DNA of 64,000 nt from Alphaproteobacteria bacterium (GCA_027483355.1 JAIXUW010000292.1:138308-202307), one strand, 5' to 3'; counted from the first letter of the stretch, positions 2,996 to 51,600 are shown. The notes: a model not told the origin generated them from the sequence alone. Numbers and translations: made by a program.

Positions 2996-3571
2996 TCAGA
3001 GTTCTTGAACCCTGACCGTCATTCTTGTGTACAATTGTTCCCATTTCACCATGGCATGTTCTTTGAGAACGTTCAAAAACTTTCTATAGTACGTGATCTG
3101 CGAATTGCAGCAGCAGTGCTCGCCCATGAGCGGAAGCTTTAACACGCTTGTGTTTGGATTCGTGTCGTGGATCCATTCGTCGATCGCGCACAAAACATCG
3201 GCGCAACAATAGACCGAGTTTCGAACGCAATTGCGAGCTCGTGCGCAACAAGCTTCGGTAGCTGCAAAGTGAGCCAGCTCGATGAGGTCGTTGTCGTCCG
3301 CGAACATAACAAAGAGTAGATCAGATCGGCTCTTTTCCCACCATTGTATATCGGCGCTTGTGTGACGTTCCTTTACACGATTCGCAAAGCCCGCGCGGTG
3401 CTTTTTAAACACCTCGGGTGTGAGCTCTTGATGGCCCTCCTTGATGCATTTCTCCTTTCGTGCAAGATCTTTTGGTTGAGAAATAGGCACGACGGGCGGT
3501 GTGAGATACGTCGGGTCGGACTTGGCGAAGAGAAAGTCGTTTATAACGCGTAGGCCCATCAAATGTATCAT
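2996..3571 (-). CDS. hypothetical Cys-rich protein (191 aa)
   Basis: ATG-initiated ORF. Its ATG overlaps the TGA of the upstream gene (ATGA at 3568-3571). Cys clusters present: ACCARARNC, YCCADVLC, HCCCN. Confidence 0.7.
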   Translation of the reverse strand: MIHLMGLRVINDFLFAKSDPTYLTPPVVPISQPKDLARKEKCIKEGHQELTPEVFKKHRAGFANRVKERHTSADIQWWEKSRSDLLFVMFADDNDLIELAHFAATEACCARARNCVRNSVYCCADVLCAIDEWIHDTNPNTSVLKLPLMGEHCCCNSQITYYRKFLNVLKEHAMVKWEQLYTRMTVRVQEL

Positions 3572-12658: not shown

Positions 12659-13449
12659 ATGGCCGAATACGACAATTGGGACGAGGAGGACTACGGAACC
12701 CAGGTGCGCCGGTTTTTTTGTGCGCTTCTAAACTGTTCGGCGCCCGGGCGCTTACATTCTTTGTTCTCTCTTCACAGACATACAATGTTGCGGATCCTGA
12801 GTTCATTTTGCAATCGCACAACAATCTTTTGACCCTCGCAAACCCGCGCGCGGTGCGTTCATGTTTTTGTGCCGTTTGTTTTTTCCGGCCGCTTTGGCTC
12901 ACATTTTTCGCGCTCATAAAATTCTAGGACTTGTCTAATATTCGTTTGGAAGCTATCGTGCTCAATCCTAGCAATCAAACCGCTGGCTTGTGCATGCTAG
13001 CGCTCTACCGCGGTATTCAACTTTTCCGTGGCGCCTTCGAAGGCAACCTAGCCTTTGGCATTGAACTCTCTGTTACTTACCCATCTCTTCCCAACGTATT
13101 ATCTCGTACGGACCAGCAGCACACCACCGTTGCCAACATCAGAACTGCGATGCACGGTGCTCACATGGGCGAGATAGCCGAAAATTACATCTCCTCTCCG
13201 TTCGAGAATGTGAATCCTGTCAATCCATTTGATTATCAGCTGATTCGCTCTCATTACGACGATATGAGCTGCCGCGATCGTCTCTACGGCTACATTGTGA
13301 TTGCCAATCGCGACATGACTCCAAATGAGAAGGCTTTGGAAGAGGAATTTATGCATTCGACTTCCCGAATGAATTGCAGCAACCCTTTTGTTCACATTTG
13401 GGTCAACATGCACAATATTCAACGTTCTAATCGTCGTATTATCGTGTAA
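12659..13449 (+). CDS. three-exon gene, hypothetical protein (213 aa)
   Basis: Exons are 12659-12703, 12778-12852 and 12928-13449. ATG sits in an aaccATGG context. The introns start GTGCGC and GTGCGT, end CACAG and TCTAG, and keep the frame. Track ORF 12931..13449 starts at TTG, with no ATG until 12994. Product: MAEYDNWDEEDYGTQ|TYNVADPEF...ANPRA|DLSNIRLEAIV... Confidence 0.6.
12704..12777 (+). other. putative spliceosomal intron (74 nt, GT-AG)
   Basis: CAG|GTGCGC ... ttctctcttcacAG|ACA. T-rich interior with ttctaaa. Joins two in-frame exons. Confidence 0.6.
12853..12927 (+). other. putative spliceosomal intron (75 nt, GT-AG)
   Basis: GCG|GTGCGT ... cataaaattctAG|GAC. Joins exon 2 in frame to the ATG-less ORF 12931..13449. 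Confidence 0.6.
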
Positions 13450-13549
13450 TTTGAGTAAAAAACTCTTATCAAGCCACTCGGCCCCCTCGCTTTTTTCCTT
13501 TTCTTGTTTTTTTAGTACCGCCGCTAATTTGCTCCCACACGCCCCCAAA

Positions 13550-15016
13550 ATGCAATATCAATCTATAGTATCCGCAACCCAAGATCAGATTCGCGAAATG
13601 GAATCTCCAAACCCCAAAACGTCGGATAACTCACTGATTCTCTGCTACGATGGCCGCGGCGGTCAATTAGGAGTTGCAGAAAAGGTGGCACTGCGAGCCG
13701 TATCAAACTGGTCTGAGTATGGGGATATTATTCTCCAGGTGGCCGGCGGGAAGAAGTTTGGTTTTTACCGCGAGCTACTCGTGGCTTCTACGCCGTTTTT
13801 TGAAGCTCTCCTTCGAAATTTAGATGATTCAAAATGGAAAGATACCAGTGGCAAGTATACGAACGCAAAGGGCGTGGATATACCCGTGCTCACCTTTCCC
13901 GATTGGGACGCCGACATTGTAAAGGCTATTTTGCACTACCTCGTGTGCGACAGATTTCGTTACGAGTGCACTGATCAAGTTTACCAAGGCGTGCCAAAAA
14001 AGGACCTTGTCTTGGGGAAATTACACGAAATGGCGGAATTGGCGGGAATGCTGCAGCTTTCTAGCCTCGTAGAAATTGTCAAACGTGCCGTGTACAATCT
14101 TGATCCGACTTTGGTGAACAAAATCAAACAGTACGAGGACATGTGCGAAGAAGCGGAGAAAATGAAGCAGGAACTTCCAGTTGAAACCGCAAAAGCTTTG
14201 TTTTCGCATTTCTACAACCTACTCATGTGGAGTAATTATGGCGCAAAGGTTTTGCTCATTACCTGCTATAAAACTGGCGCGTTTCGCAATCTTGCTGTTT
14301 TAGACAGCTCAGGCAAATCAAATGCCATCAACACGCGCAGGCGAACGATAGTAGAGTGCTATCAAGACCTATCTCGCGTAAACCTTTCATCGTTTTTCAA
14401 AAACAGCGACGACAGCGTAAACATCAAATTGCCCATTGGTGTAATGCGTGTCATCGGAAAGTCGGGGTCTGGAGAGCGTGTCGTGACATCTTTTCAAATC
14501 GACCCGCTGTTTCCGGGTATGCCAGCGTGCACGCTGAGCATTGATGGAGTGGTTTCATACAATTCTCTAGGGTTGAAAACAACCGCTGAACTTTCAACAC
14601 CGTTTTTAGAGTTATATTCTACTTACACTAAAACTTTACGGTTGAAGGTTACTTGGACTGCCTGTGGAGCATCTCGACACATGACCTACAATTTCCCAAC
14701 TTCGAACAATACACAGAAGGTAGAAACATCGCTCACTCTGCCTTGTACTAATATCTACGAAGTTTATTGTCAGTGGATATGGCAACCACGTCCAGATGTT
14801 TTGGCCGAGGATAACCGGTTAAACCAGTCAGACCTCCCACTTCGCATTTACAATTCTTCAGCGGTCAAATACAAACCCCGATTGTATTTACATATACCTC
14901 AACGGTGGACAGGAGAAAATTCATTAGGCGTGCTCGACAACGACGACGCGTCGGACAGCGACGACGATGCAGATTCAGACTCTACGAAAAGGAGGAAATT
15001 GAATGATGTCGAATAA
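13550..15016 (+). CDS. BTB/POZ domain protein (488 aa)
   Basis: The ATG at 13550 (cccccaaaATG) avoids overlap with the upstream gene. BTB-like core: GDIILQVAGGKKFGFYRELLVASTPFFEALL...ADIVKAILHYLVCDRF. C-terminal SDSDDDADSDS plus KRRKL. Confidence 0.75.
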   Translation: MQYQSIVSATQDQIREMESPNPKTSDNSLILCYDGRGGQLGVAEKVALRAVSNWSEYGDIILQVAGGKKFGFYRELLVASTPFFEALLRNLDDSKWKDTSGKYTNAKGVDIPVLTFPDWDADIVKAILHYLVCDRFRYECTDQVYQGVPKKDLVLGKLHEMAELAGMLQLSSLVEIVKRAVYNLDPTLVNKIKQYEDMCEEAEKMKQELPVETAKALFSHFYNLLMWSNYGAKVLLITCYKTGAFRNLAVLDSSGKSNAINTRRRTIVECYQDLSRVNLSSFFKNSDDSVNIKLPIGVMRVIGKSGSGERVVTSFQIDPLFPGMPACTLSIDGVVSYNSLGLKTTAELSTPFLELYSTYTKTLRLKVTWTACGASRHMTYNFPTSNNTQKVETSLTLPCTNIYEVYCQWIWQPRPDVLAEDNRLNQSDLPLRIYNSSAVKYKPRLYLHIPQRWTGENSLGVLDNDDASDSDDDADSDSTKRRKLNDVE

Positions 15017-15018
15017 AT

Positions 15019-15888
15019 TTACTTTGTACACACAATAATTTCATCGGACTGAAATTCGGTCCTACACAAAGGACATTCGAGACTGGCGCTCTTGTTAACC
15101 AGTTCCTCCGTGCACGAATGACAAAGCACTTTGTGCCCGCAATGAAGTGGCATGATAAATGCTCTATTTGTCAGGCATACGACGCAGCCCTCTTCTTCAG
15201 ATTCGTCATCGTTCAACAATACGTCTTTGCTCTTGTCCGTTAGAGGCTTTTTGACAGGCTCTTTGAACGCGTCCGGGCCAGGTTGTTCGTATTCGGAATC
15301 GTCGTCATTATTATTCCCATCATCGTTGCTAGTCTGCTGTACCGTCCAAGGCCCCAATTGAATTTGCCCTTCTGTACTCGATGTTGAAAAGCCATCGGGA
15401 GAAAGATGGTGGTGTTGCGCGTTCGAGTCGAAAACAACCGACCCAATGCTGTTGGAACTGCCTTGTACTTGTACTCGTATAGGAGTGCTACCAAAAAAGT
15501 TGTGGATTGTTCCAATCTTGTTTCCGTTGTGAAGCTCGACCGAAGTGCCCCATGGTTCTTGTTTTACAACGAGGCCCTGTGGCGTGGATGAACTGTCGTT
15601 CAAACCCGCGGCAGCTAAACCTTTGTAGCGTTTGCCATATAACTGGGCTCTGAGAGCGTATAATTTGCCTCTCTCCACGTATAATTTGGATCGCGCGTCG
15701 TAGATTCGAGAACGCTTATCGTACGCTCTGGCTCTCAAATCATACAAACTTTGTCTCTTTGACAAATCTTTTTCTATGCTTGCCAATGTGGAATACGCGG
15801 CGGCTTCGTCACTCATTGCACCTGCATCATCGTTAAGAGCGCAAATTTGATTTTGCAAATCGTCCAGTTTTTTGACCACCTCCTCCAT
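15019..15888 (-). CDS. C-terminal RING (C3HC4) finger protein with heptad-repeat region (289 aa)
   Basis: CVVCLTNRAFIMPLHCGHKVLCHSCTEELVNKSASLECPLCR fits C-x2-C..C-x-H-x3-C-x2-C..C-x2-C. Six consecutive heptads x[LAI]YxxRx at aa 47-88. Its stop is 2 nt from the stop of the convergent BTB gene. Confidence 0.85.
   Translation of the reverse strand: MEEVVKKLDDLQNQICALNDDAGAMSDEAAAYSTLASIEKDLSKRQSLYDLRARAYDKRSRIYDARSKLYVERGKLYALRAQLYGKRYKGLAAAGLNDSSSTPQGLVVKQEPWGTSVELHNGNKIGTIHNFFGSTPIRVQVQGSSNSIGSVVFDSNAQHHHLSPDGFSTSSTEGQIQLGPWTVQQTSNDDGNNNDDDSEYEQPGPDAFKEPVKKPLTDKSKDVLLNDDESEEEGCVVCLTNRAFIMPLHCGHKVLCHSCTEELVNKSASLECPLCRTEFQSDEIIVCTK
15025..15030. terminator. palindromic TGTACA at a convergent gene junction
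   Basis: 9 nt after the stop of 13550..15016. It lies inside the last codons (CTK) of the RING gene. Confidence 0.3.
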
Positions 15889-17330: not shown

Positions 17331-17595
17331 ATAAGCATAATGTAAAACCAAAACGCAAAAAGAGGTGATCGCGCCGCAAGATTGAGATATATTGGCAATA
17401 AACACATAGCGTAACGATTATACACACAATGTAAATTGCAAATGCCCGAGTTGTACGGTGTAAAACCTGAATGTACTGGGGTATATTGTAACAGATGTTC
17501 CATTTGAATAACGAAGAATCTCGCATGCTGTGCACCTCCGGAATACAGACCGGATTTGGGGCCTTTTGTACCGCCCGGGACCCAGCCAATTTTTT

Positions 17596-18276
17596 TTGTG
17601 GTCTCGCGCGTTTGCTTGGTATTTTGTCATCGCACTAAAAAAAATGTAAAAGGAAGCGTTGCCGTGCCTGCGATAATGATGCAATTGCGTGTAAATTAGC
17701 GCCATTCTACCCCCTGTTTCAATCTGTGGTTCCGGTTCTGATTTTATCACAAGTGCACCCGCGGGTGTCTGCAGCGTTCTGTGTGACGTGTACTCAACTA
17801 AACAATGCACTCACTGTCGTGTAGGCTCCAGGGCCAATAGAGAACACTGCAAAGCCGGCACCGCCGACTCGACGGACGCTTCCGATTTTCTTTTGCGGTC
17901 TCGCGCCGTTTTAAACCACCCTGGGCGTTGCGCGGAAAACATTGTGGTCTCGCGCGTTGGGTTGAAATTTTGCTAACATGTCCAAAAAATGCAAAAGAAG
18001 CGTTGCCAGCTTAACTATCAAAGTACCTTGCAGCTAGTCACACAGCGCCGCACCTAGGATTCTTACAGCTTCTGTAGTTCGCCGCAAGGCCTCTTTCCGT
18101 GTCTACACGACCAAAGAGACTTTGGATTTTTTGTACAATTCTTTCTTACAACGTATTTGCATACGAGGACAATGCACTACACGGGATGCTAGACCGGCAG
18201 ACGCTTCCAGTTTTGATTTCGGAATCGCCTCCTTTTGAACAAGCCTCGGCGGCGCGCAAAAACATTGTGGTTTCGC
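17596..18276. repeat. degenerate ~340-bp tandem duplication punctuated by GTGGTCTCGCGCG
   Basis: Unit A 17596-17663 vs 17942-18007 (TTGTGGTCTCGCGCGTT...AAAAAATG[TC]AAAAG.AAGCGTTGCC, about 75% identity by eye). Unit B 17875-17953 vs 18200-18276 (GACGCTTCC...AAAACATTGTGGT[CT]TCGC). A variant 13-mer lies at 17895, and an inverted GTCTCGCGCC at 19461-19470. Confidence 0.75.
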
Positions 18277-18330
18277 AGGAGTAGTCGCGGTTCAAGTTTT
18301 TTATGATATACACGAGAGCAGGAGACACGT

Positions 18331-18639
18331 TCACAAATTCTGTCTTGCAATCTCGACTTCTCTTGACACGAAATTGAGAAGGCGCGCGAGAGGAAGATTG
18401 CCACTGTTGGCCGCGTTCCCGTTGCCCAACAAAATGACGCGCTCTAACATGTTGTAGAACTCCTTGAGATCAACCTTGTCTTTGTCGCCTTCAATGACGT
18501 GGAGGCGGCACAGAAGCCTGTTGATGGCAGCGTAGACGTTGGCGTTTTTTTCGGAGCAAATGGTCACCGTCTTCACGTCGTCCTCCGTTTTTTCGGTAGA
18601 AGTCAGAGTGAACGAAAAGTTGTACGTCTTGTTCGACAT
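18331..18639 (-). CDS. hypothetical protein (102 aa)
   Basis: First ATG (gtgtacaATGtcg) of a track ORF that begins at TTG. Isolated between two repeat-rich non-coding islands. Confidence 0.55.
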   Translation of the reverse strand: MSNKTYNFSFTLTSTEKTEDDVKTVTICSEKNANVYAAINRLLCRLHVIEGDKDKVDLKEFYNMLERVILLGNGNAANSGNLPLARLLNFVSREVEIARQNL

Positions 18640-18832
18640 TGTACACAATGCTTTCTCTTGAATTGTTAGACAGTAGCGACTGAAAACAGGAACGAGAACC
18701 GCCGGTTCGCGCCGCCGGCATTTTTTTTTGCGCGCAACTTTTTTTGTACTCGCCGGATAAAAAAATTATGTGTGCGGCCGTGTGTTAAAACTTATTCTAC
18801 TTTACTCACTTCAATCTGCTACACATTCCATT

Positions 18833-19563: not shown

Positions 19564-19753
19564 AATCGAAATTGAATTTGACCGTAAAGAAAATCGATAG
19601 CGCCATGTGCAACAGGCGCAAAAACAGCCAGGGTGTGGGTACGTGCCGGACAGCTAGTTTCTGAAAGACTTTCCGGTTACCAGTCGAACGAAACTGGGCG
19701 GCTGCTGCAGGTGTCGCTATCGATTTTCTTTTAGGACAAATTCGATTTGGATT
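19564..19753. repeat. ~190-bp imperfect palindrome (56-nt arms, 77-nt spacer)
   Basis: Left arm 19564-19619 (AATCGAAATTGAATTTGACCGTAAAGAAAATCGATAGCGCCATGTGCAACAGGCGC) matches the reverse complement of 19697-19753 at 46 of 56 positions. A third copy is at 41719-41764. Confidence 0.85.
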
Positions 19754-32456: not shown

Positions 32457-32906
32457 TCACGAGTGCTTATTTGTCATATCGAGTCCACGTCTCTTACCTT
32501 CTCGCGTGTAAAACCTCTTGAACACTCTCTTGATGGGCTCGGACGACCCATCCTCAAATCGTGTCACGTGGACGGCGTCGATCAATAGAATCGTGCCGCC
32601 GTAAGCTTGTTCAAACATTTGCAACCGCTTCTCGATCCACCCCGGGACAAGCAATTTGAAAAATGCTTTTCTTCCAACAGGTCTGGATATCGTGCGTAGT
32701 TTCACACCGCCGCCGTTATCCGCGTTCATCTGTTTGAATCGAGGGGAACTCGGTGGAGTAGCGCATACTTCCGAGTGTATTTCCAAAAGATATCTGTAGC
32801 TCTTGTTGCCCGACGGAGACTTTTTCAACACTTTGAAATTTCCTTCGATCACTTGGTAGCTGATACTAATCAGCGTCTGGTCCTCTGGGATACTCACAAG
32901 CGCCAT
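32457..32906 (-). CDS. hypothetical protein (149 aa)
   Basis: First ATG (MALVSIPEDQ) of a track ORF that begins at GTG. Confidence 0.65.
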   Translation of the reverse strand: MALVSIPEDQTLISISYQVIEGNFKVLKKSPSGNKSYRYLLEIHSEVCATPPSSPRFKQMNADNGGGVKLRTISRPVGRKAFFKLLVPGWIEKRLQMFEQAYGGTILLIDAVHVTRFEDGSSEPIKRVFKRFYTREGKRRGLDMTNKHS

Positions 32907-33095
32907 CGATTTTTCTAATTCTAACACTAAGAACTAATACATGAAAAAATATATATACACAAGCGCTGCTTAGCAAAGAAAATGGCGCGTCTAAAAATAG
33001 AACTCGTATAAAGGTGCCAAATATAAATATTTGAGAATAACAGCGTTCTATATCATGTTTTGTGATCATATAGATAATGTGCTAGACGAAAAAGA

Positions 33096-35063: not shown

Positions 35064-35185
35064 AACTTGCATGTGCGAGGGGGTGTACTCAAACCGATTT
35101 CAAAAATGTATTATTGTGCAATAAAAAACTATAAAACCACGCAATTTCATTGCAGTCGCAAATACTCCGAAACCATGTTATAATC

Positions 35186-36721
35186 ATGGAGCTGAACACA
35201 AGACGTCTTCGTCTCCCGTGCGACATGCCGTTGTCGCAAGAATATATTCATGCCCGATATTGGCTGGCACACATGAAATCGGTGTATCACGTTTTTCAGG
35301 CTCACGATTGTAACGTCTCCGGGTTGCAAGACGAAGAATCGCATGAAACGTGCATCGTTACGCGACGAATTGGGTCCCAATATTTTGTATGCACTCGCAG
35401 TGGAATCGTACATTATTGTACACCTGATAAATTGCACCCGTTTGTGCACGACACGCGGGACACGACGGTGTGTTGTCTTTCCAAATACACGCTGTCTAGT
35501 CGCACTGAAGCCGATGATTGGGAGGCTCGAGATTTGCAAGATTATGCAGATGGACACGAAGGAATGGATGCGTCGAAATTGCAATGGAATCAGATGAGAT
35601 TTAAACGTCTGGCCGAGGACGCGCTTCGAGAAAGCGAAAAGGTGGCTCAGCAAGGTGGCAAAAGCGCAGCGGCAAAGCAGAATAAAGGAAAGAAAATGAG
35701 TTTGAAAAATCAGGCATCGCGCGCTCAGCTTCAAAGCATCGGATTCGACCCTGTGGCTCTTTCCATGTCCTACGCGAGCAGCATGTCAAAATCCAACACT
35801 CTGAATATATCCACTGTGATATCTTTGACGTCTTCGGGCGCCTATTTAGGCGGAGAAGCCAACGTGTTGAACACGACTCCGCGCGCGATTTGGTGCAAAG
35901 GTCGCTCCTTTGTCAAACAAACACCCGAGAACAGCTACTCTACACGGATGACATTTGCATTCCTGTCCGAGAAAAATTGGCTCGCTCAGCAAAATAAGGA
36001 GGACATGTTTCCGGCGGACTATTTTTGGGAGACACTGCTACTACACAACTCCGCCAACTCCGACTCTACAAGCAATGAGGTGGTCCGCAAATATCAAGAA
36101 TCGCAATCGGAATTAGCCAAGTCTATTACAAGTCTATTGTCGCTGTGCAAAGAGCGTGGCCTGACGCCCAACGGTGTGCATGGGCTGCCGCGTAAGATTA
36201 ACCCGACACTAGACGCGGAGACGGAAGCCAAAGACAAGTCTGTTAACACTGTCATGTACAGGCCCGGCATTTGCAATGTATCCATAGCCAAAGATACCTG
36301 CGAACTAATCCGGCGTGATATGAAATGTTTCAAGGACTATCGTGTGCCTCCAGAGGACTGGGTTGGCCAGTTGGTTCATAAATACGGTAAACGCCGTGTC
36401 GCTGCAGGGCTCCGTGTCTTGCTGCTCGTTCTCATGCACTGTAAGTGGATACAAGCGAGCCGTTCGCATTCTCCCGAGTTCAAAAAGAAAGTGGACGAAT
36501 TTGTGGATGCCGGGTACCACTCAAATGTCAGAGCCAGTCTACTGCAGCATGCTGTCAGGGAATTCACGGACAATCGCGAGTTTGTGGACCAGCTATTCAC
36601 AGTATTAATAAACTCGGCGATCTCGAGTTCGAGCAATTTGGCTCCTCATCCTTTATGGCTTTATGAATACATTAGAGTGACGCGCGAACTGATCCAGCCA
36701 TCTCGGATCGGCGGTAAATGA
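35186..36721 (+). CDS. hypothetical protein with N-terminal Cys/His cluster (511 aa)
   Basis: First ATG (MELNTRRLRL) of a track ORF that begins at TTG. The segment HETCIVTRRIGSQYFVCTRSGIVHYCTPDKLH...VCC suggests metal binding. Confidence 0.8.
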   Translation: MELNTRRLRLPCDMPLSQEYIHARYWLAHMKSVYHVFQAHDCNVSGLQDEESHETCIVTRRIGSQYFVCTRSGIVHYCTPDKLHPFVHDTRDTTVCCLSKYTLSSRTEADDWEARDLQDYADGHEGMDASKLQWNQMRFKRLAEDALRESEKVAQQGGKSAAAKQNKGKKMSLKNQASRAQLQSIGFDPVALSMSYASSMSKSNTLNISTVISLTSSGAYLGGEANVLNTTPRAIWCKGRSFVKQTPENSYSTRMTFAFLSEKNWLAQQNKEDMFPADYFWETLLLHNSANSDSTSNEVVRKYQESQSELAKSITSLLSLCKERGLTPNGVHGLPRKINPTLDAETEAKDKSVNTVMYRPGICNVSIAKDTCELIRRDMKCFKDYRVPPEDWVGQLVHKYGKRRVAAGLRVLLLVLMHCKWIQASRSHSPEFKKKVDEFVDAGYHSNVRASLLQHAVREFTDNREFVDQLFTVLINSAISSSSNLAPHPLWLYEYIRVTRELIQPSRIGGK

Positions 36722-37851: not shown

Positions 37852-38832
37852 ATGGCTTTGGAGTGCATTCAAAAACTCCGCGCCAAGTCGGCCATGCGCC
37901 AGACGTTGCACAGTGATCTTGACGACTTTAACTCGATGAATGGTGAATTCTACGTTTCTCCTACGCATGAACTGGAAGAAATGGGCAAGAGGAACATGCG
38001 AGAATTTGGCACGAAGAGAAAGCGTGTTGACGAGAAGACTAAAGAAAAGAAAGTTATGGCGTTCAAGATTGAGATTGCACGAATGACACTTGCCACTATT
38101 TTTGCTCTATTCGACTGTGTATCCGATGCCGGAACGCAGTTGACTGTCGCTCAGTTGACCGTTTGCCGAGAAGTCATCGGGTCTCTTTTGCCGGCCCTCT
38201 GCCTCGGAGTCGATATCTACACTCTGCTTCAGCATGAAATCTACGAGAACTACGGCATTAGATACACGGGGAAGGGTCATTCCGCGTCCGGAGGCCGTCG
38301 TACGGGTAAAACATACGGCTGTGCATGTGTCATGTCTATTGTCGCCTGCGCCGCCCCTGCCTTCAAAGTCATGTTTGTCAACTTGTATTCACACGCCGGC
38401 ATGGAGAACTTGAGAACGATGAACTACTTTGTTGACATTTTTACAAAGGACAAGAAATTCAACATTTCCGTGAGCAAGAAGGACAAGTACAATCTGTTTG
38501 TGCACTCACACATGTACAACTTTATCAAGAACAAGATTGACGAGGATCCTGCGACATATGGAGAGTTCAGGAGCTTGCTCAAGGAGAGCGTTCTCACTTC
38601 TCTGCCCAATATGGATGGCTCCAGTGGCAACGTACGCTCTTTCCCTGTTCATTTTGACACTAATACCCGGTCGTTTCGGTTTTTACAAAAGCAGGAAATG
38701 TCTGGTTGCACCCCGCCCTCAATACGCCGAGCTCTCTCAGGTACGCCGGTTTTGAGACCAAATAGAATTGCACGCCCTTTAAACTTTAAATCCTTTTGCA
38801 AAAAACGTGGCTGCTTGCGTTTTTGCTTGTAA
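37852..38832 (+). CDS. P-loop NTPase-like protein, Walker A neighbourhood reminiscent of terminase large subunit (326 aa)
   Basis: Walker A GGRRTGKT, followed by a hydrophobic helix, KVMFVNLYSHAG and GSSGNVRS. No clean hhhhDE Walker B. The last ~65 codons look low quality and contain two GTACGC donor-like sites (38632, 38741). Confidence 0.65.
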   Translation: MALECIQKLRAKSAMRQTLHSDLDDFNSMNGEFYVSPTHELEEMGKRNMREFGTKRKRVDEKTKEKKVMAFKIEIARMTLATIFALFDCVSDAGTQLTVAQLTVCREVIGSLLPALCLGVDIYTLLQHEIYENYGIRYTGKGHSASGGRRTGKTYGCACVMSIVACAAPAFKVMFVNLYSHAGMENLRTMNYFVDIFTKDKKFNISVSKKDKYNLFVHSHMYNFIKNKIDEDPATYGEFRSLLKESVLTSLPNMDGSSGNVRSFPVHFDTNTRSFRFLQKQEMSGCTPPSIRRALSGTPVLRPNRIARPLNFKSFCKKRGCLRFCL

Positions 38833-40067: not shown

Positions 40068-41606
40068 ATGGTGAATCGAGTTAAAGTGGCTGAAATTCGA
40101 ATTCAAGATCTCAACACGCGCGCCGAAGGGAATGCCGCTGTTCAGATCAGCGATGCCGACAAGTTCATTCCCATCATCCCGTCCTTTGTCTTTATTGGAA
40201 TTTCTGCATTAATATGCATCGTGCTGGCGCTCTATTTGTTCTACAAAATACTGCAGCAGATTGACTTTGTCAAGCGCTCTTCGGACAAAATCCAGACGCT
40301 GTATTTGTCAGTTCCCGGCGCTTCCTCCTTGGCCTCGTCTCCTCAGTACTCGCTCAAATCTATAGAGTCGAATCAAAAGCTGAATCTGGCCAGTTCCAAA
40401 TTCCAACTCGACATTTACACGAAACCTGCCGTAGATCGACCGGATGTATGTTTCAAGATTCATTCATACTCTACGGCATCGTTTAAACTAGAAACCACTG
40501 TCAAAACAGTTGCGCTGGCAATCGTGCAGCGAGGTGTGCCGTCTATGGATCTAGAGTCTGCTCAATTCAAATCGGATCCTAATCCAGGAAACGACGGGAA
40601 CGCAAAGAGTCAACAATTGCTCGCTCAGTATTCGCCCGGTCCTCGCGAAATTGCCGTTTACGGTCTGTTAGCCTTGAGTTTTGCTTTACTTGGCTACCAG
40701 TACGGAATCATGTACAGTAGTAATGGGTATACGATCAAAAGTGACGAAAGCATATCATGGTACAGCCGTTACATTATGTTCGGAGTGATTACATCCACTG
40801 TCATGGCGGCGATTGCGAGTGTCACACTTGGAACGGTCTTCCATTACATCCCATTCACCGTGGCTCTCTTAAACGGGCTTACATACGCGTTATTGAGCGC
40901 GGCAGCTGCATCTATTCCGGGATCTCAAACCGTGTTCATAGTACCAGCCGCGGTCGCCTACGTGATTTTAGCGGCCGTCACCACGTTCTATTTTGTAGAT
41001 ATAGTATTGGAGAACTCTAAAATCCGAATGTGGCTTCCCGCAAACTCGCGCGTGGTCACGGGCATTAGTTTCGTGCTTCAAGTGGCGTACCTCGTTCTGG
41101 CTTTTGTGGGCTCGGACATTTACAAATCCCTGACCCCGACAGCCACATATTGGGTGTTGCCGGCATTGGAAACGGCTCTTTTAGTGTATTACGGCGCTGT
41201 TCTCATTGCTGTCGTCGAGTATTTGGAAACCGAACTGGCAAACGCCGTCTTGCGGCTCTGCGGCGTGCCGGAATCTATCACTATTGCCGGATGTGACACT
41301 AAAATGTCAAAACAAACTTCCGATAGCTTGGGAACGCCATCAAAATCGCCTGTGGCGCTATTGTTTTCAGGTCGACGGGATTTGCAAGCCGCAAAGGATT
41401 CTGTCGCGCAAATGACAAATTCCTTGCAACCTAAAACAGATTTACCACAGCCTAATCCGATTAGCATGCGCGCTAGGAATACTCAGAAGCTGCCAGAGCG
41501 CGATAACTCGCCTCCAGCTCCCGCAGTGAGTTCTACAGACGCCAAATCTATGCAATCGGCTATTGAAAGAATAAGGCTACGCACTGCTCAAAGTGCGAAT
41601 GGTTAA
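40068..41606 (+). CDS. multi-pass membrane protein, about 7 TM (512 aa)
   Basis: First ATG of the track ORF. One N-terminal TM (FVFIGISALICIVLALYLFY), then six clustered TMs at aa ~195-400, then a hydrophilic tail. Confidence 0.8.
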   Translation: MVNRVKVAEIRIQDLNTRAEGNAAVQISDADKFIPIIPSFVFIGISALICIVLALYLFYKILQQIDFVKRSSDKIQTLYLSVPGASSLASSPQYSLKSIESNQKLNLASSKFQLDIYTKPAVDRPDVCFKIHSYSTASFKLETTVKTVALAIVQRGVPSMDLESAQFKSDPNPGNDGNAKSQQLLAQYSPGPREIAVYGLLALSFALLGYQYGIMYSSNGYTIKSDESISWYSRYIMFGVITSTVMAAIASVTLGTVFHYIPFTVALLNGLTYALLSAAAASIPGSQTVFIVPAAVAYVILAAVTTFYFVDIVLENSKIRMWLPANSRVVTGISFVLQVAYLVLAFVGSDIYKSLTPTATYWVLPALETALLVYYGAVLIAVVEYLETELANAVLRLCGVPESITIAGCDTKMSKQTSDSLGTPSKSPVALLFSGRRDLQAAKDSVAQMTNSLQPKTDLPQPNPISMRARNTQKLPERDNSPPAPAVSSTDAKSMQSAIERIRLRTAQSANG

Positions 41607-41867: not shown

Positions 41868-42338
41868 ATGAATGTCGCCGGACAAATTTTCGTTGAGCAG
41901 TACAGACTTAGTTTCAACAGTTTTGAAATATTATGCATTCGGCAGATCAATACGGCCTTTGCAGGAGTCGTTTCGCCGTCTTTCTTGAGCTGCAGCGTAT
42001 CTTATGATCGCTACGCTATTGTAAAATACGCCATTCCATGTAGAAATTATGCTGCCACGAGTATAGCGCTGAATGTTGCATCTGACCTGTGCGCGAAGCT
42101 TTACGATGAAACCGGTCTGGAGTTCTATTCAACAACGCGCCGCGATTTGGTGCAGACAAATGCAGGGGAATCTATAATCGAATGTACACATGTTCTAATA
42201 TCTAAACAGCGCCGCCAATTATCTGTTGGTCCAGGGTTGTTTTTGTTAGCTGGCGCGGTCTGCATAGCGTGCTTTTTGGCCGGTATGATAGTGCAAGAGA
42301 TTCAAAAAGATTGTACAAAATTGTGTATTAAACCATAG
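41868..42338 (+). CDS. possible tail-anchored protein (156 aa)
   Basis: First ATG of a track ORF that begins at TTG. C-terminal TM GLFLLAGAVCIACFLAGMIV. No A-rich leader. Competing antisense ORFs exist. Confidence 0.4.
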   Translation: MNVAGQIFVEQYRLSFNSFEILCIRQINTAFAGVVSPSFLSCSVSYDRYAIVKYAIPCRNYAATSIALNVASDLCAKLYDETGLEFYSTTRRDLVQTNAGESIIECTHVLISKQRRQLSVGPGLFLLAGAVCIACFLAGMIVQEIQKDCTKLCIKP

Positions 42339-42349
42339 CGGCCCAAAAA

Positions 42350-43720
42350 ATGAGCTTATTCCGGCTTTTATACGCCATTTACTCTGGCTCCAAGTATGCC
42401 ATAGCTCGAGAGGACAGTAAATTATGCGGTGGAAACAACACAATGCATAGTGTGTCCATGTTGACTTATTTTGTCCGGGAAAACATGCCGGGCCTTTATT
42501 TGCTTTCGGCGCCTGATTTTACGGCTCCAAGGGATTTAGGAGAGCCACTGCAATTTGATCAAACATTCAAAATGTTTATTGAATACATGAAAGGCGCAAA
42601 AGTGATTTGTCTGGACGCCATGGGCGAGTTGGAGGAATCGGACGATTTGGTCTCGGACTCGACCACCGCCGCTGGAGGAAGTAATTTGTTGCAAGCTCCG
42701 ACTAGGCTCGTGTTCGCAGACAATGAACTTTGGCGCGAATTTTGCTCTTCAAAACTCAAAATATCTCAAAGTGTACTTTTGAATATCGACGTACGCGCCA
42801 CGTGCTGGCGTGTGCTATTCGGAGTCGTAGACGGGAACTACCGCCACTGGCCCGAAACTTACGCCAACCACGAAAAGTCTTTCAAATTGTCTCTGCTCCA
42901 AGTCGTAAAGGCCAAAAACATAAAAGACTTAAAATTCGATGCGGCGACCATACGAAAGGATGTGCCTCGAGCTCAGTTGACAGACTCGACTCACGAGCTG
43001 ATGCTCAAATTGGCACTCGGAACCGTCGTGGCCAAGGATTCAACGGTCGGATATGCACAAAGCATGTCTCATATCGGTGCGGTGCTCGTACGCGTGTTTT
43101 ATCCAATTACGTCGTCACCGAACAAATTTTCCGAACAATGCCCGCAAATTAGCGACTGGTTTGCCGACGAGAAACACGCCGACGTTCAGTTCAGATGGCG
43201 CTTACTCGACGTGATTATTGGTATTCAAAAAATATCCGATCAAGTCCATCAGCTTCTCGTGAATATTGACAAGAACGGCGGGCTCAAGCAAGACGCTGGG
43301 CCCATGGCAGTCTACTGCAAGCAGATATTCAGCAAAGTGGCACTTTTGGACCCGGATTTACATTCTCATATTGCCGTGACATGCGAAGCGTATGGCACAA
43401 TGGTGTCCGCGCTATTGTTCGTTTCTTGGGTCGATTCGCTATTTGCGCATAAAATGCCATTTGAAGACGTCGTTCAAGTGTGGGATTTTCTATTCGCCGG
43501 TTTTGCGCACAAATTCTCGTTCATGAAACGATTGGAAATGTTCTGCGCTACTCTCTGTCACCTTCAGCGAGTCAGAATTATGAATTTGAAAGAGGCAAAT
43601 GACATTATCGCATGCATGTCGACGCTGCCCGAGCAAGATTACAAGGGTATGAGCGTACCGATACCTAAAGTGATCAAAGAGACGTTTGCGAATTTGACAA
43701 AACACTGCAAGGAGCTCTGA
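42350..43720 (+). CDS. TBC (Rab-GAP) domain protein (456 aa)
   Basis: All three TBC signature motifs are present in order and with normal spacing: RATCW (RxxxW), IRKDVPR (IxxDxxR arginine finger), GYAQSMSHI (YxQ glutamine finger). Confidence 0.75.
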   Translation: MSLFRLLYAIYSGSKYAIAREDSKLCGGNNTMHSVSMLTYFVRENMPGLYLLSAPDFTAPRDLGEPLQFDQTFKMFIEYMKGAKVICLDAMGELEESDDLVSDSTTAAGGSNLLQAPTRLVFADNELWREFCSSKLKISQSVLLNIDVRATCWRVLFGVVDGNYRHWPETYANHEKSFKLSLLQVVKAKNIKDLKFDAATIRKDVPRAQLTDSTHELMLKLALGTVVAKDSTVGYAQSMSHIGAVLVRVFYPITSSPNKFSEQCPQISDWFADEKHADVQFRWRLLDVIIGIQKISDQVHQLLVNIDKNGGLKQDAGPMAVYCKQIFSKVALLDPDLHSHIAVTCEAYGTMVSALLFVSWVDSLFAHKMPFEDVVQVWDFLFAGFAHKFSFMKRLEMFCATLCHLQRVRIMNLKEANDIIACMSTLPEQDYKGMSVPIPKVIKETFANLTKHCKEL

Positions 43721-45985: not shown

Positions 45986-48649
45986 ATGGAGAACCGGCTG
46001 CGTGCCAACGCTCCCGCGCTCTCTCCGCAAGAAATTATCGCGCAAACGGTTGCCGTAGCTACATCTAGAGTTGCTAGTGCACCAAGTCCCCAGGAGTTAA
46101 ACAATGCCTACGCTAATACGATCATGGAAATTGCCAATAACGGTCCTATTGCCGTTGCTTCAATGACAAGTGCACTTTCAGATGCCGATAGATTGAAATT
46201 AAGAGCTATGATATCAGGTCCCGTAGAAGGCTCGCCTGAATCTGTAGTGGAATCGGCAAAGAAGTTGAAAGAGCCCACCGCTACTATTCCGCTGGCATTT
46301 TTTTCGGGCGTCCGCGATAACGCCGCCGCGTTGCACACAAGTAGCATGTCCACATCTATTACTACTCATCATACATTGCAAAATGAAGCTCTTACATTAT
46401 GCGGTGCGCGACAAGACGCGAGCGCGGCGGCTGCACCCGGCGCGAAAAAGGTGAATAATGCAAGCAGAACTGCTCTTGCGTGGAGATATGGATCTGGAGG
46501 TCCAGCCGCTGAAAGAATTCATAAAAAGGCCATGACGGCGACAGATAAGAAATTAGTGCAGGGAACGACAACGGGCGCCGGAGCCGCCGTACCCGAATAT
46601 GAGATTCAGCCTCCTGCCGAAAAGCAAAGAAAAATGTCCGAGTTGAATCCCATGAAGATTTATACAACTGCGGTTCAGAAACTGAAGGACAACGAGCGGT
46701 TAGGATTCGCCGATATCACATCGACTCTTCCATCAGTGTCGTCCAAGCAATCTCAATTGGTGAGTCCTCACGACCCGCTCACGGGAATATCACACAACGT
46801 GGTTCGCCTGGATAGCGATCTTTTGAACTCCATGGTCACCAATACGGCTACTGTGAACACGACAAACAAGTTTTTGTCTCAGGCCATTGAAGACGCTGGC
46901 TACGCTCATGTGGAGCATATAGCTATGGATGTGGATGCCGCGGATAAGACCGCCGAGGACGCTCGAGCCGTCGCTACGCTTCCAAAGCAGCAAAAGTTTT
47001 CCCGAAAGCGCAAGGGAATGACTTCGATCGAGGACGACGACGTACCTATGTATTACCCGGGTATGGAGATTACTGGAACGACCAAAGTGACTGTGGATCC
47101 TACTATTTTGGAGAATCCCGATATCGCGGAGCGGAACAAAAAGGCGATTGCGAGAAAGGATTTGGTTCAAATGCAAAACGAAGACAGTGACGTACTGACA
47201 GCGCCATTTCGAAATTCCAGCGGTCCCGCCGGTCTGGTGCCCTACGTTCTTTCGCGTACTAATCTGGATACTGTCCGAACGGCCGTGTCCGCTATTGCCG
47301 ACGTGTTGAGCGTGCTCTTTTCGGGACATGTGGCGAACAACTACGTGGACGACGCCACGATCAAGCTCACTGGAATTTCCATTCAGGACGCTAAGTATTG
47401 TGCCGAGAAAAGGCATCCCGAGATCCCACTCGTTCAATTTCCTACTATTATGCGCAAACGAATGAGGAATCTGTTCGAAAACGACAATTTGTTCAAGGCG
47501 CTTGGACTCGAAAAGGACATTGAGACACGCCTTCGTGCTCAAGGGATCGATGGTCATGTCGGATACAATGTAGAGTCAGTGGACTATATTATGAGGGACA
47601 TTGGAATGAAATCCAATCACGCTGAGTCCGACAACATGCAAAGACTGGCCGCTGTTGCTCAGAGAGGAGCCATATTCGCCGCATTTGAAGAACAGCAAAA
47701 GAGACTTGCGAGCAAAGGTTATGATCACTATGGCAGTAAGAAAAAATGGCACGTGTCCGAGCAATTGGCGGCTGCCAAGGCGGAATCGGCTACCAAGTAC
47801 CCTGACATGGAAGTCGTGACAATGGCTCACATTACCAAGTATTGTATTGAGCATACGTTGGAGGATCTGAAAAGAACGGGAAAACGTTTGTGCAAGAACG
47901 GAGCGTCGTGTTGGTGTAAGCAAATCGCAAACACTCGCTATCCTCGAATGTTCAACGGGCCTCCGGCATTCCCCAAGGCAGCCGATGTCGACAAATCCAT
48001 TGCGGGGAACATACCTATGAATTTCATCACCAAGATATCTATGGATCAACACGTTTATTTCGGCACAGCGGCGCAGTGGTTCTCGAGACCCCAGCTCATG
48101 GCCAATCTCAATGCAGTTGCCGAATCCAATGCGCAGACTCGAGCCAACTTGGGGTTTGTCGGAGTAGAGTTCCTAACCCCAAAACAAGAACAGGAACTCG
48201 CTGAATGGTGGGCCCAGTTCAAAGATGACGAGATTTTCGGAATAAGCATAGATCCACGTCGCAATTTCAACCAGCTCTGCTACTTGTGCGAAATGTTCAG
48301 AGTCACATCGGAGCATGTCATGCATGTCAATCAGCGTGTTCCCGACGAAATGCAAAACGTGGACCCTAGAACACGAGACTACTTGCCGCTCAACACATTC
48401 CAAGTGCTCCATTCGATCCCTGGAGAGTACGACAAGGATGCCTTGATCGAGACGTCGATCGGCGCAGGCGTTTCGGGCAGCACTCGACTTCCATCAGGTC
48501 GAAGTCTCGTCGTGGGCCCCTTCCCCGAATTCAGATTGAGTAATTTCGAGCTCTCGGTCATATCCATTCCAAACGAGGACGGCGTTGAAACCACGCGTCG
48601 CATCGTCAAGCAACCCGGAATGGATTTTCGATTGTCCTCAGTAATGTAA
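45986..48649 (+). CDS. hypothetical protein (887 aa)
   Basis: gaaaaaaaATG start. Long ORF. No domain recognised. Confidence 0.85.
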   Translation: MENRLRANAPALSPQEIIAQTVAVATSRVASAPSPQELNNAYANTIMEIANNGPIAVASMTSALSDADRLKLRAMISGPVEGSPESVVESAKKLKEPTATIPLAFFSGVRDNAAALHTSSMSTSITTHHTLQNEALTLCGARQDASAAAAPGAKKVNNASRTALAWRYGSGGPAAERIHKKAMTATDKKLVQGTTTGAGAAVPEYEIQPPAEKQRKMSELNPMKIYTTAVQKLKDNERLGFADITSTLPSVSSKQSQLVSPHDPLTGISHNVVRLDSDLLNSMVTNTATVNTTNKFLSQAIEDAGYAHVEHIAMDVDAADKTAEDARAVATLPKQQKFSRKRKGMTSIEDDDVPMYYPGMEITGTTKVTVDPTILENPDIAERNKKAIARKDLVQMQNEDSDVLTAPFRNSSGPAGLVPYVLSRTNLDTVRTAVSAIADVLSVLFSGHVANNYVDDATIKLTGISIQDAKYCAEKRHPEIPLVQFPTIMRKRMRNLFENDNLFKALGLEKDIETRLRAQGIDGHVGYNVESVDYIMRDIGMKSNHAESDNMQRLAAVAQRGAIFAAFEEQQKRLASKGYDHYGSKKKWHVSEQLAAAKAESATKYPDMEVVTMAHITKYCIEHTLEDLKRTGKRLCKNGASCWCKQIANTRYPRMFNGPPAFPKAADVDKSIAGNIPMNFITKISMDQHVYFGTAAQWFSRPQLMANLNAVAESNAQTRANLGFVGVEFLTPKQEQELAEWWAQFKDDEIFGISIDPRRNFNQLCYLCEMFRVTSEHVMHVNQRVPDEMQNVDPRTRDYLPLNTFQVLHSIPGEYDKDALIETSIGAGVSGSTRLPSGRSLVVGPFPEFRLSNFELSVISIPNEDGVETTRRIVKQPGMDFRLSSVM

Positions 48650-48663
48650 ACACTTCATTTGGA

Positions 48664-51600
48664 ATGCGAAAGCTTTCCCTCTTTCATCATCCTAAACGAT
48701 CCAACAACTCGGCTGCGTTTGAGACGCGTGTCGGATCTCACTCGTGGCGGGCGCTGGCCATGAATGATGTGAAAGAAGGATACAAAGCCTTTCCGCTCCA
48801 CGATGCAAAGGCGCGATTGGCCAGACAGCAGGGTTGGTACGTCTGGTTGGCTCGCGCTCAAGTGTCCGGGCAAATCTCCACGCCTGATACGTGGATTGAT
48901 AAAACACGATATGTGTTAAGCGACATTGTCTGCAATTTGAACGATATTTCCGATACTACCTTCCGGGATCCTATTCCCACATCAATCACGGGTACGCTCA
49001 TGCCCTGGGATGCGCTAGCGACAGCGTGTCGCGCGTACATGATCGACGAAGAACAATTTGAGAATATACTACGTTTGGAAGAGTACAAGCCACTTGGATC
49101 CGTGATCGGAGTTGGCGAAACGGAATTGCAGCTGTCGGAGAGTGCAAACGCACCGCCCCTGGCATTACTGAGGAAATTTTTCATGCAAAAGCATGCAATA
49201 CCTCTTATCAATTACATAGAAAAAACGTCTATTGTGTCTCCAAGTCAAAGCAAGACTAAATACGCCTCGGCGCATTTGGACTTTGACAAGATTGAAGATG
49301 ACATGAGACAAAACTACCCTTATCCTTATATGGACCCGGGATCATGGAACATTAATCATTTCAAAGTTCCTACCTCTGTGTTCGAGCAAGAACCGTCCAT
49401 TGACGATCTTGTCATTTGGGAATCCGTTCTATGCCCTGTCATGTCCACATACAGATACTTGGAGAGTCTAGTACACAGCGTGAATCAGTGGCCGTCCTAT
49501 AGATACATTGGTCTTGAATACAACGCCGAGAATGACTCGTGGAAGGCTCCAGTCAACTACTCAAGGCAAAAGAAACTGGCCCCGATATCCCTATTGCAAT
49601 TGCAATATCAGTTTACGATTCCCGTGCCTCGATCGCTGCATGATTTACAGGGCGTAGACGAAATAGCTCTGTGCGACTTGTGGGTCAATGGATTTTCATG
49701 GATGGCAACTGTTCTATGGAGACTCTATCATTTGCACAGGTTGAAAGCTGTTGCCGTGAGACCCGACGACCGATGTCTGCTCCATGCCACTCAACTCGTG
49801 ATCGATTCTCATATCCCGCTCTACGCGTACAATGTGAAACACGGAACGTTTCATGACGCTTTCCATTTACAAAAGGTGCCCTTTTCGACATTTGACGGCC
49901 CCACGCCCAAATCCAAGCATCCGTTGGCACCTGCGGCTCTCAACGAGTACGGTGGAATTTACGGCAAGCCTAAGCGACACGAACATGTCAAATCGACTCA
50001 ATATCCACGAGTTTTCATGTTGTACCCAGGAATGACGCGCTGGCTAGTCACTGTCGAAGAATCGCCGTCTCTCATCCCGGCATTGAACATGAGCGGGTTC
50101 TTCTTCCGGTACTCGAGCGAGCATACGGCTATTCAAAACTGGGACGATCCTAAAACGGCATTTATTACTCTCATGGTCTCCAAAATGAGCCAATTCCGAA
50201 GTCGCTTGCGAGCCGACGATACTACGGCCAAGCATTGTTTTACAAAGCATCCTATTATGGCATCTATCTTGCTCAATTACAAACATATATTCGAACTGGG
50301 AAACACGCACGGAGAAAGCAAGAGGCCCGCGTTCCAAGATCGGATCAGACTCTGGTTGACTTACAAGGACCCCGAGACCGCTCCTAGAAGCATCGAATGG
50401 GTCGTCGATCATTGTTTTAGAGATTTCAGATACGCTACTCGATTTGCAATGCACGAAATGATGTGCTACTACATCAATCTGATTCCTGCGTTCAAGCAAT
50501 GCATGCTGTCTCATCCTCATCAGGGAGTCATGTACAAAGAGTGGATGACAACGGTCAAAAACGCAGCTCAGTTTCACAGGAATCGATTGGAAACGATTCC
50601 GCTTCTACCGGGAGCGCCCAAGTCGACGGTTATTCTCTACAATGATATTTTACTGTGCAGACTCTACAATGCGACGAACAAGCACTTGAATTTTTGCTGC
50701 CACTACGGCACGTTTAGCGATGTTCTCGAAACGTTTTTTCCCAAAGAGTATAGTTCTCTATTGTCACGCGTGGAAGTCACACTAAGAGCGTTTAGCAAAG
50801 ACCACGCCCCGGATACGGAATTGAAGAATCAGATCGAGGCCAAGTGCAATCAACTCAAGCAACTGGCCGAGCTTTCCAGGTCGCGTCACACAAGATTTGA
50901 CTACGATGACGATCTATTTGATTCAGAAAGCGGATTTAACGCGCTTGGAAACGCTGGCAATGGTTCAAATGGAAACGGCGGTAACGACGAAGATGACGAG
51001 GATGCCGCCCAAAAGGAGCACGCCGTGTTTGAACAGTTTCACGACGACACATTGTACACGAACGAAGGTGATATCGATTTAGATGTGCTGGCAGACATGC
51101 TCTTGACGTCTAATGAAGCTGGGAAATCCGGCCAGCCTGCTACTGCGGCGGCAGATTCGACGACTCCAAACCAGGCCGAGTCTTCAAGTTCATCAAAATC
51201 CGAGCAGACTGGGCCCGAACTGTATTGCTACTCCAAAGCCGAAATGCGTGCCATTCACCGCATTCTGTCAGACAACATTCTTCACATTCCAATTTTGGAT
51301 GATCCTGGAAACGAACATATATCCGAAATGTTCAATGCCATGGTGTGGACCACGCAGCGCTATCACGGAGCACGTCAGACTCTGCCACTCAAGCTCTTAC
51401 TCTTGTTCGGAATGAGTTTCCAAATGCTCATTCGCTTGTACATGATCTTTATCTACTATGAACAGGCTTTGCCGTACCACAGAATCAGTGGCATGATCAA
51501 GAGATTGATTCAAGACTACCCACAGGACTGCGCTCTCTTGTGGCGATATCTCCAGTTGCTCAAAATGTTCTCCACAGAGCAAGCCATTCTTTTGCCGGCT

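Follow-up and report, generated by a model that had tools for sequence, protein, structure and literature searches.

Rab GTPases set the identity of every membrane compartment, and the mechanism by which TBC-domain GTPase-activating proteins (GAPs) act on them through two catalytic fingers is established from the Gyp1-Rab33 complex (PDB 2G77). Gyp1p of yeast and TBC1D22A/B of humans work at the Golgi as TBC Rab-GAPs for Ypt1/Rab1 and Rab33, and TBC1D15 and TBC1D17 belong to the Gyp7 group, which acts on Rab7 and other endosomal Rabs. Intracellular bacteria inject Rab-GAPs of their own: Shigella VirA and EspG of enteropathogenic Escherichia coli (EPEC), which are TBC-like dual-finger mimics, and Legionella LepB are Rab-GAP effectors of this kind. 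As for viruses, NS5A of hepatitis C virus (HCV) acts with host TBC1D20, and Mimivirus encodes a Rab GTPase. Here we describe a gene at positions 42350..43720 (+) of a 64,000-nucleotide stretch of DNA deposited as Alphaproteobacteria bacterium (hereafter the window, meaning the whole stretch that was analysed). We put at roughly two in three the probability that this gene encodes a soluble, cytosolic TBC-domain Rab-GAP of a rare family, known only from syntenic, orphan-rich, virus-like genomes of ~208-292 kb.

A TBC-domain protein encoded in the window

The complete gene for the TBC-domain Rab-GAP-like protein is an uninterrupted open reading frame (ORF) that starts with ATG, has its stop codon within 42350..43720 (+) and gives a product of 456 amino acids; it is defined by the ORF itself, the Pfam match, the AlphaFold2 model, the Foldseek matches and syntenic orthologues. 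The competing ORFs over the same interval, on both strands, are just 65-140 amino acids long and unsupported. The public gene call, P0001, is 425 amino acids long and begins at M32 of our reading, which affects window positions 42350-42442. Because residues 1-31 (MSLFRLLYAIYSGS...) are conserved across all full-length relatives, we judge the 456-residue start to be the correct reading, and the P0001 gene model is probably truncated at its N terminus.

The Pfam RabGAP-TBC profile (PF00566) matched residues 148-389 (42791..43516, +) at a score of 48.1 bits (gathering cut-off 25.2 bits; E 1.5e-12), spanning positions 3-198 of the 216 in the profile, and the same profile was also present in all of the relatives that were fetched. 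As judged by the fold, the helical core extends from about residue 112 to the C terminus. A family profile made from nine sequences, the window protein and its relatives P0002-P0009, matched 11 solved TBC proteins in the PDB, with E values of 8.7e-12 for TBC1D14, 1e-8 for TBC1D17, 5.9e-8 for TBC1D22B and 3e-6 for TBC1D22A; the alignment to TBC1D22B, which covers nearly the full domain (profile positions 160-465), was the sole near-full-length profile alignment.

The structural results agree with those of the profile searches. The AlphaFold2 model built from the nine-sequence alignment, with a mean predicted local distance difference test score (pLDDT) of 80.9 and a predicted template-modelling score (pTM) of 0.85, is all-helical, with 22 helices and no sheet. 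When this model was compared with the PDB using Foldseek, ranks 1-29 were all TBC/RabGAP domains, with template-modelling (TM) scores on the target of 0.53-0.73. The top match was Gyp1p (1fkm; E 1.2e-7, TM score 0.73 on the target), with ~310 columns aligned to Gyp1p and to TBC1D22A, and the Gyp1-Rab33 complex (2g77) came at rank 4; the other TBC matches were TBC1D15, TBC1D22A/B, TBC1D1/4, TBC1D20 and RabGAP1(L). An earlier note on this DNA, made from the sequence alone, had proposed a Pfam TBC profile and a structure prediction as checks of its claim that the gene encodes a TBC protein, and both came out in favour of the claim.

These results also bear on the idea that a helical protein unrelated to TBC domains carries the motifs by chance. 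A marginal phmmer search of the PDB with the single sequence, in which TBC1D22A appeared at E 0.94, would agree with such a coincidence; it is refuted by the Pfam and family-profile E values (1.5e-12 and 8.7e-12) and by a Foldseek probability of 1.00 for 36 TBC-type entries, with unrelated folds appearing only at E > 0.3, and we give it practically no credence. By every sequence and fold criterion applied, the window protein is a genuine member of the TBC-domain family.

Both catalytic fingers are retained

Within this domain, the earlier note had picked out RATCW, IRKDVPR and GYAQS as the RxxxW motif and the arginine and glutamine fingers at canonical spacing, and the reading holds, as the motifs co-align with those of TBC1D14, TBC1D17 and TBC1D22B. 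The RxxxW motif, R149-A-T-C-W153 (residues 149-153; 42794..42808, +), has R149 and W153 invariant among the nine members. The IxxDxxR motif, I201-R-K-D204-V-P-R207 (42950..42970, +), which supplies the arginine finger, is invariant at D204 and R207; and the YxQ motif, G234-Y235-A-Q237-S238 (43049..43063, +), which supplies the glutamine finger, is invariant at G234, Y235 and Q237, as are M239 and S240. The distance from R149 to R207 is 58 residues, and that from R207 to Q237 is 30. In the profile alignments, the IxxDxxR motif of the family falls on IKLDISRT of TBC1D14, IERDVSRT of TBC1D17 and IHIDIPRT of TBC1D22B, and its GYxQ on GYVQGMS of TBC1D14 and TBC1D17 and on GYVQG of TBC1D22B.

Only 17 columns of the nine-sequence alignment are invariant. 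They include all of the residues just named as invariant (R149, W153, D204, R207, G234, Y235, Q237, M239 and S240), together with the pair W378-D379, which belongs to the C-terminal lobe. Both fingers are kept in 9/9 family members, whose identity to the window protein is 19-54%. Further, we compared the window gene with its copies at two related loci, L001 (the 208-kb ENA contig ERZ7462356 NODE_8) and L002 (from Logan): synonymous sites are saturated, the proteins are 52-75% identical, and the ratio of nonsynonymous to synonymous substitution rates (dN/dS) is ~0.18 in the one computable pair. These comparisons show that the gene is under purifying selection. With R207, Q237, D204 and R149/W153 aligned to those of solved GAPs and invariant in the nine members down to 19% identity, the catalytic integrity claimed in the earlier note is supported as far as can be told from sequence. 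Because both fingers are retained, the protein is predicted not to be a pseudo-GAP; pseudo-GAPs of the TBC1D7 type typically lack these catalytic residues, and TBC1D7 structures were among the Foldseek matches only at lower rank.

Some observations weigh against the interpretation of the gene as a virus-borne, catalytic GAP. Identity to any solved TBC protein is just 12-16%; the best sequence-profile match in the PDB is TBC1D14; some TBC proteins with both fingers, TBC1D14 among them, are without demonstrated GAP activity; and searches with Pfam, PHROGs and PDB profiles, made on the window and on the flanks that were fetched, found no capsid, polymerase or packaging ATPase, so that the case for a virus and for a host Rab is built on indirect features of the genome. 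TBC1D14, a reported effector-like binder of Rab11, is the match that suits an alternative in which the TBC fold is there chiefly to bind a Rab without catalysis, as an adaptor or scaffold that sequesters or relocates the Rab or its partners. The conserved N-terminal extension of ~110 residues, as a possible interaction module, would fit such a role as well. However, both fingers, D204 and the RxxxW motif remain invariant down to ~20% identity, whereas their loss is typical of pseudo-GAPs like TBC1D7, and the invariant positions cluster in the catalytic motifs rather than elsewhere. We therefore regard an adaptor role as unlikely and continue with the catalytic GAP as the preferred reading.

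The extension itself (approximately residues 1-111; 42350..42682, +) is specific to the family and precedes the TBC core. It consists of four helices, predicted with confidence, and after them an acidic linker that is disordered; in the AlphaFold2 model the helices span residues 3-12, 15-25, 33-53 and 69-82, the pLDDT of this block is 85-92, and confidence is low at residues 56-63 and 98-116. An MSxxxxLxxxYxxG motif at its N terminus is kept in the relatives, and the extension as a whole has no Pfam match. The loop at about residues 250-275, which comes after the helix bearing the glutamine finger, is poorly predicted.

Predicted substrate and mode of action

We next consider on which GTPase such a protein would act. 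The window holds 36 ORFs of at least 150 amino acids, which together occupy ~82% of it, and no Ras/Rab-family protein was detected among them. As the window encodes no recognisable Rab, the GTPase acted on would most likely belong to the host. A crude hydropathy scan found neither a signal peptide nor a transmembrane segment in the TBC protein, and a protein without such a segment is consistent with one acting at the cytosolic face of a membrane. From the lack of a Rab in the window, the character of the genome, which resembles that of a virus of eukaryotes (see below), and the lack of a signal peptide or transmembrane segment, we reasonably infer that a host Rab is inactivated. Further, because an intact TBC GAP is carried as a conserved gene of a eukaryotic-virus-like element, we consider it probable that the element itself turns off a Rab of host membrane traffic rather than hijacking a host GAP.

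In the mechanism that we propose, R207 of the IxxDxxR motif and Q237 of the YxQ motif would reach in trans into the pocket where a host Rab holds its GTP. Insertion of the two fingers would speed GTP hydrolysis, so that the Rab would revert to its GDP form; in that form it would be taken off the membrane, which would block the step of transport, tethering or fusion that it controls. As for which Rab this might be, the best fold and full-length matches are to the Gyp1p/TBC1D22 and TBC1D15/17 groups, which gives a hint, as a weak pointer, of a Golgi (Rab1/Rab33-type) or late-endosomal (Rab7-type) substrate.

Distribution of the family and nature of the carrier genome

The family appears to be rare. 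A phmmer search of 1.84 billion cluster representatives at E <= 1e-3 matched only 9 proteins, namely the protein itself, the six members P0004-P0009, with 23-31% identity over the stretches that matched, and two further TBC proteins that match weakly (E ~3-7e-4) and appear to be ordinary ones; a word-indexed search added the closer relatives P0002 and P0003, at 51-52% identity, the range also found for the orthologues in the syntenic loci L001 and L002. Queries with the TBC protein and with the 887-residue and 1535-residue proteins encoded downstream of it returned no relatives in IMG/VR, and scans of JGI metagenomes likewise returned none. The 185,579 bacterial and archaeal species genomes of GTDB held neither relatives nor exact matches, and a Foldseek search of BFVD found no viral protein with a TBC fold at E <= 1e-3. 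In the literature searched on TBC/RabGAP proteins and viruses, no virus-encoded TBC GAP was reported. These are absences in finite libraries and not proof of novelty.

The window has the gene content of an orphan-rich genome. As many as 31 of its 36 ORFs have no Pfam match, and the domains found in the other five (5/36), namely TBC, SMYD-like MYND+SET, BTB and C-terminal RING, are all eukaryotic regulatory modules. Pfam detected no housekeeping gene among the 36 ORFs, the tRNA scan of the window found no tRNA, the Rfam scan found no families, and PHROGs gave no match to 10 large window proteins. Packing of the genes is tight: the gaps between them measure 11-90 nt, and in some cases start and stop codons overlap by 4 nt. 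A run of A residues (AAAAA) lies within 80 nt 5' of the ATG in 23 of the 36 genes, compared with ~5 expected, and often abuts the ATG, as it does at the start of the TBC gene (CCCAAAAAATG). Several genes (e.g. 3568-6027, 22354-22953, 32457-32927 and 35150-36721) have a TATA-like box 40-50 nt upstream. The A-rich start context and the TATA-like boxes both point to expression in a eukaryote. AATAAA or ATTAAA within 80 nt past the stop was found for 4/36 ORFs against a background of 2.6%, a weak enrichment that we do not use as support.

The relatives give an indication of the size and diversity of such genomes. The orthologue P0003 is present on three contigs, two of which are ~208.45 kb long and come from separate assemblies; recurrence at this length suggests that the relative has a complete replicon or genome of ~208 kb. 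The record to which the window itself belongs is 292,368 bp long. Because the related loci span 43-57% GC, the lineage is diverse, though very sparsely sampled. Together, the orphan density, the compactness, the recurrent ~208-kb contig and the eukaryotic-type signals would suit a carrier from a lineage of large eukaryotic DNA viruses that is unclassified and has been sampled only sparsely. An affinity to nimaviruses or other invertebrate viruses is a guess from orphan density and genome size only.

We also compared the window with particular groups of genomes. A microsporidian or diplomonad chromosome was set aside for lack of housekeeping genes; neither a cyprinid herpesvirus nor a malacoherpesvirus fits in base composition and gene content, and proteins of either would be expected to have NCBI names or sources; and for an NCLDV (nucleocytoplasmic large DNA virus) the density of hallmark genes and enzymes is too low.

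Could the window instead come from a gene-dense, intron-poor cellular eukaryote, such as a divergent protist, with the TBC gene as its own fast-evolving RabGAP? The missing viral hallmark genes in the window and flanks, the eukaryote-like expression signals, the absence of the family from IMG/VR and the exclusively eukaryotic character of the recognisable domains (TBC, SET-MYND, BTB and RING) could all be read in this way. Yet to find 0/36 housekeeping ORFs and 31/36 without a Pfam match would be very unusual for 64 kb of a cellular genome, and tRNAs are lacking as well. The recurrence of the ~208.45-kb orthologue contig in separate assemblies suggests a discrete replicon, and synteny is kept at 20-30% protein identity and across loci of 43-57% GC. 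Further, cellular TBC families are large, whereas only 9 matches were obtained here from the 1.84 billion representatives. With no housekeeping gene in 64 kb, a virus is far more likely than a cellular genome of compact build, and we hold this explanation to be improbable, slightly more so than that of a non-catalytic adaptor.

Tight packing with 4-nt start/stop overlaps, together with the Rab-GAP effectors LepB and VirA/EspG carried by intracellular bacteria, might also suggest that a jumbo phage or an intracellular bacterium is the source of the protein, as a eukaryote-like effector. The prokaryotic libraries speak against it, as neither relatives nor exact matches occur in the 185,579 bacterial and archaeal species genomes and the 10 large proteins have no PHROG matches. 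The window also contains no prokaryotic housekeeping genes or tRNAs, and its genes are preceded by A-rich sequence instead of Shine-Dalgarno-like sequences, and TATA-like boxes are present. A bacterial or phage source is very improbable, and a eukaryotic virus remains the carrier that we favour.

Conserved neighbours of the TBC gene

The TBC gene lies in a block with the order 338-residue protein, 514-residue protein with ~6 transmembrane segments, small ORF with a C-terminal transmembrane segment, TBC, 652-residue protein on the opposite strand, 887-residue protein and 1535-residue protein. This order is shared with L001 and L002, and a rearranged version is found at two further loci, L003 and L004, the TBC proteins of which are just 24-28% identical to the window protein. 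Compared with L001, the TBC protein is 51% identical and thus intermediate: neighbours that evolve fast reach 28-37%, and the two genes conserved best reach 61% and 69%.

The small ORF directly upstream (41868..42338, +) ends 11 nt ahead of the TBC start codon and, from its first ATG, encodes a Cys-rich protein of ~156 residues with one C-terminal hydrophobic segment and a short tail, as judged by ORF and hydropathy. An ORF of 117-189 residues lies in the same position, directly 5' of the TBC gene, in L001 (9389-9958), L002 (3523-3933), L003 (9377-9931), L004 and the short contigs L006 (1376-1876) and L007 (893-1246). Position and architecture are kept at a sequence identity of only 16-26%, and all of these ORFs end in a single hydrophobic segment followed by a very short tail, in the manner of tail-anchored proteins. 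From synteny alone we speculate that the small protein could be a membrane receptor or partner that places the GAP on a particular membrane.

Upstream of this ORF, 40068..41606 (+) encodes a multi-pass membrane protein with ~6 transmembrane-like segments by hydropathy; L001 and L002 have orthologues of it, 31-32% identical, at the corresponding place. The earlier note had taken the many membrane and secreted proteins of the window to fit an action on membrane traffic, and this is borne out in part. About a dozen of the 36 ORFs contain transmembrane-like hydrophobic segments in the same kind of crude scan; the relevant ones are the two genes immediately upstream of the TBC gene, the 6-segment protein and the small C-terminally anchored protein, both of which are syntenic with TBC in the relatives, and otherwise the claim is not fully supported.

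Downstream, the 887-residue protein (45986-48649, +) and the 1535-residue protein (48664-53271, +) are the most conserved of the block, with 61% and 69% identity to L001, respectively, and 29-37% identity to L003/L004. Both carry Cys-rich motifs, such as GKRLCKNGASCWCK, as well as inserts of acidic low-complexity sequence. Pfam and PHROGs matched neither of them, homologue searches with them returned only close relatives, and PDB profile searches with the 887-residue and 652-residue families gave no match; AlphaFold modelled the 887-residue protein with low confidence (pLDDT 29). The two proteins are likely to be core genes of the lineage.

Still further upstream, a 326-residue ORF (37852-38832, +) carries a Walker-A-like GGRRTGKT at residue 147 and is 56% identical to its counterpart in L001 and 34% to that in L003. 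It had no Pfam match even at permissive thresholds and may be an unrecognised NTPase.

Other features of the window

Outside the block, the 1123-residue protein encoded at 23901-27272 (-) has a MYND finger (residues 665-695) followed directly by a SET domain (residues 701-885), which by its domain order corresponds to a SMYD-like lysine methyltransferase architecture. A BTB/POZ protein (13388-15016, +) and a protein with a C-terminal C3HC4 RING (15019-15888, -) are encoded by convergent genes 2 nt apart, and both domains are classed as ubiquitin-ligase-type modules.

Three ORF-poor gaps interrupt the otherwise compact arrangement. One, of ~1.4 kb (57630-59049), holds a cluster of direct and inverted ACGTAACGTAAC-type units at 58141-58451, including a 23-bp tandem repeat at 58141-58196, and these repeats are a candidate regulatory or origin-like region. 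The other two are of similar size (17331-18769 and 53783-55287), and in the first of them a 31-nt sequence is repeated directly, at 17596 and 17942. At 19564-19753, just 5' of the ORF at 19899-21107, lies an inverted repeat whose 56-nt arms are 82% complementary and separated by a 78-nt spacer.

Comparison with known Rab-directed systems

What is unusual here is the carrier; the enzyme family is well known, and the predicted mechanism is canonical. In its fullest form, our proposal is that the gene would be the first recognised virus-encoded canonical TBC Rab-GAP, core-like and syntenically fixed in an undescribed lineage of orphan-rich DNA viruses of eukaryotes with genomes of ~200-300 kb, taken to a specific organelle by the upstream tail-anchored protein and, in infected cells, closing one particular Rab pathway of the host, be it secretory, endolysosomal or autophagic. 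We advance this extended version tentatively, as somewhat less probable than not. If an intact TBC GAP is indeed borne by a virus, then viruses, too, inactivate Rabs directly with an enzyme of their own. The GAP would be compact, highly diverged and presumably specific, and its substrate would mark the point in membrane traffic at which replication of these viruses is limited. It would also flag a lineage of large DNA viruses that current viral catalogues have missed.

Of the cellular enzymes, Gyp1p and TBC1D22A/B are the best structural matches (1fkm, 2g77, 2qfz and 6d0s) and have the RxxxW, IxxDxxR and YxQ motifs in common with the window protein, in identical order. The resemblance is one of fold and motifs at only 13-16% identity. 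In contrast to them, the window protein has the N-terminal extension of ~110 residues and a longer insert at residues 250-275, and it is encoded on a virus-like element, whereas theirs are genes of cellular genomes. TBC1D15/TBC1D17 and TBC1D14 are strong fold matches as well (5tuc and 5tub), with profile matches over the catalytic segment; however, the alignment covers mainly the N-terminal subdomain that bears the fingers, and the accessory regions of these proteins are absent from the window protein.

With VirA, EspG and LepB, the likeness that we infer is one of strategy, a GAP supplied by the pathogen against a host Rab (Rab1) that disrupts secretion or autophagy. These effectors have no detectable TBC homology and were not among the Foldseek matches, whereas the window protein is a true TBC homologue; as it also has no prokaryotic relatives, it is not a bacterial TBC mimic. 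The Rab of Mimivirus shows that a component of the Rab cycle can be carried by a large DNA virus too, but it is a GTPase and not a GAP.

The viral proteins that act on TBC proteins share the point of attack. Influenza A M2 and SARS-CoV-2 ORF3a are described as targeting TBC1D5/Rab7 by binding or displacing the host TBC protein (PMC12548552). As far as the literature searched and the BFVD structures go, viruses manipulate GAPs of the host and do not encode one. The GTP/GDP cycle of a Rab is attacked by M2, ORF3a and HCV NS5A as it would be by the window protein; but those viruses bind or displace a GAP of the host, whereas here the GAP is encoded by the element itself.

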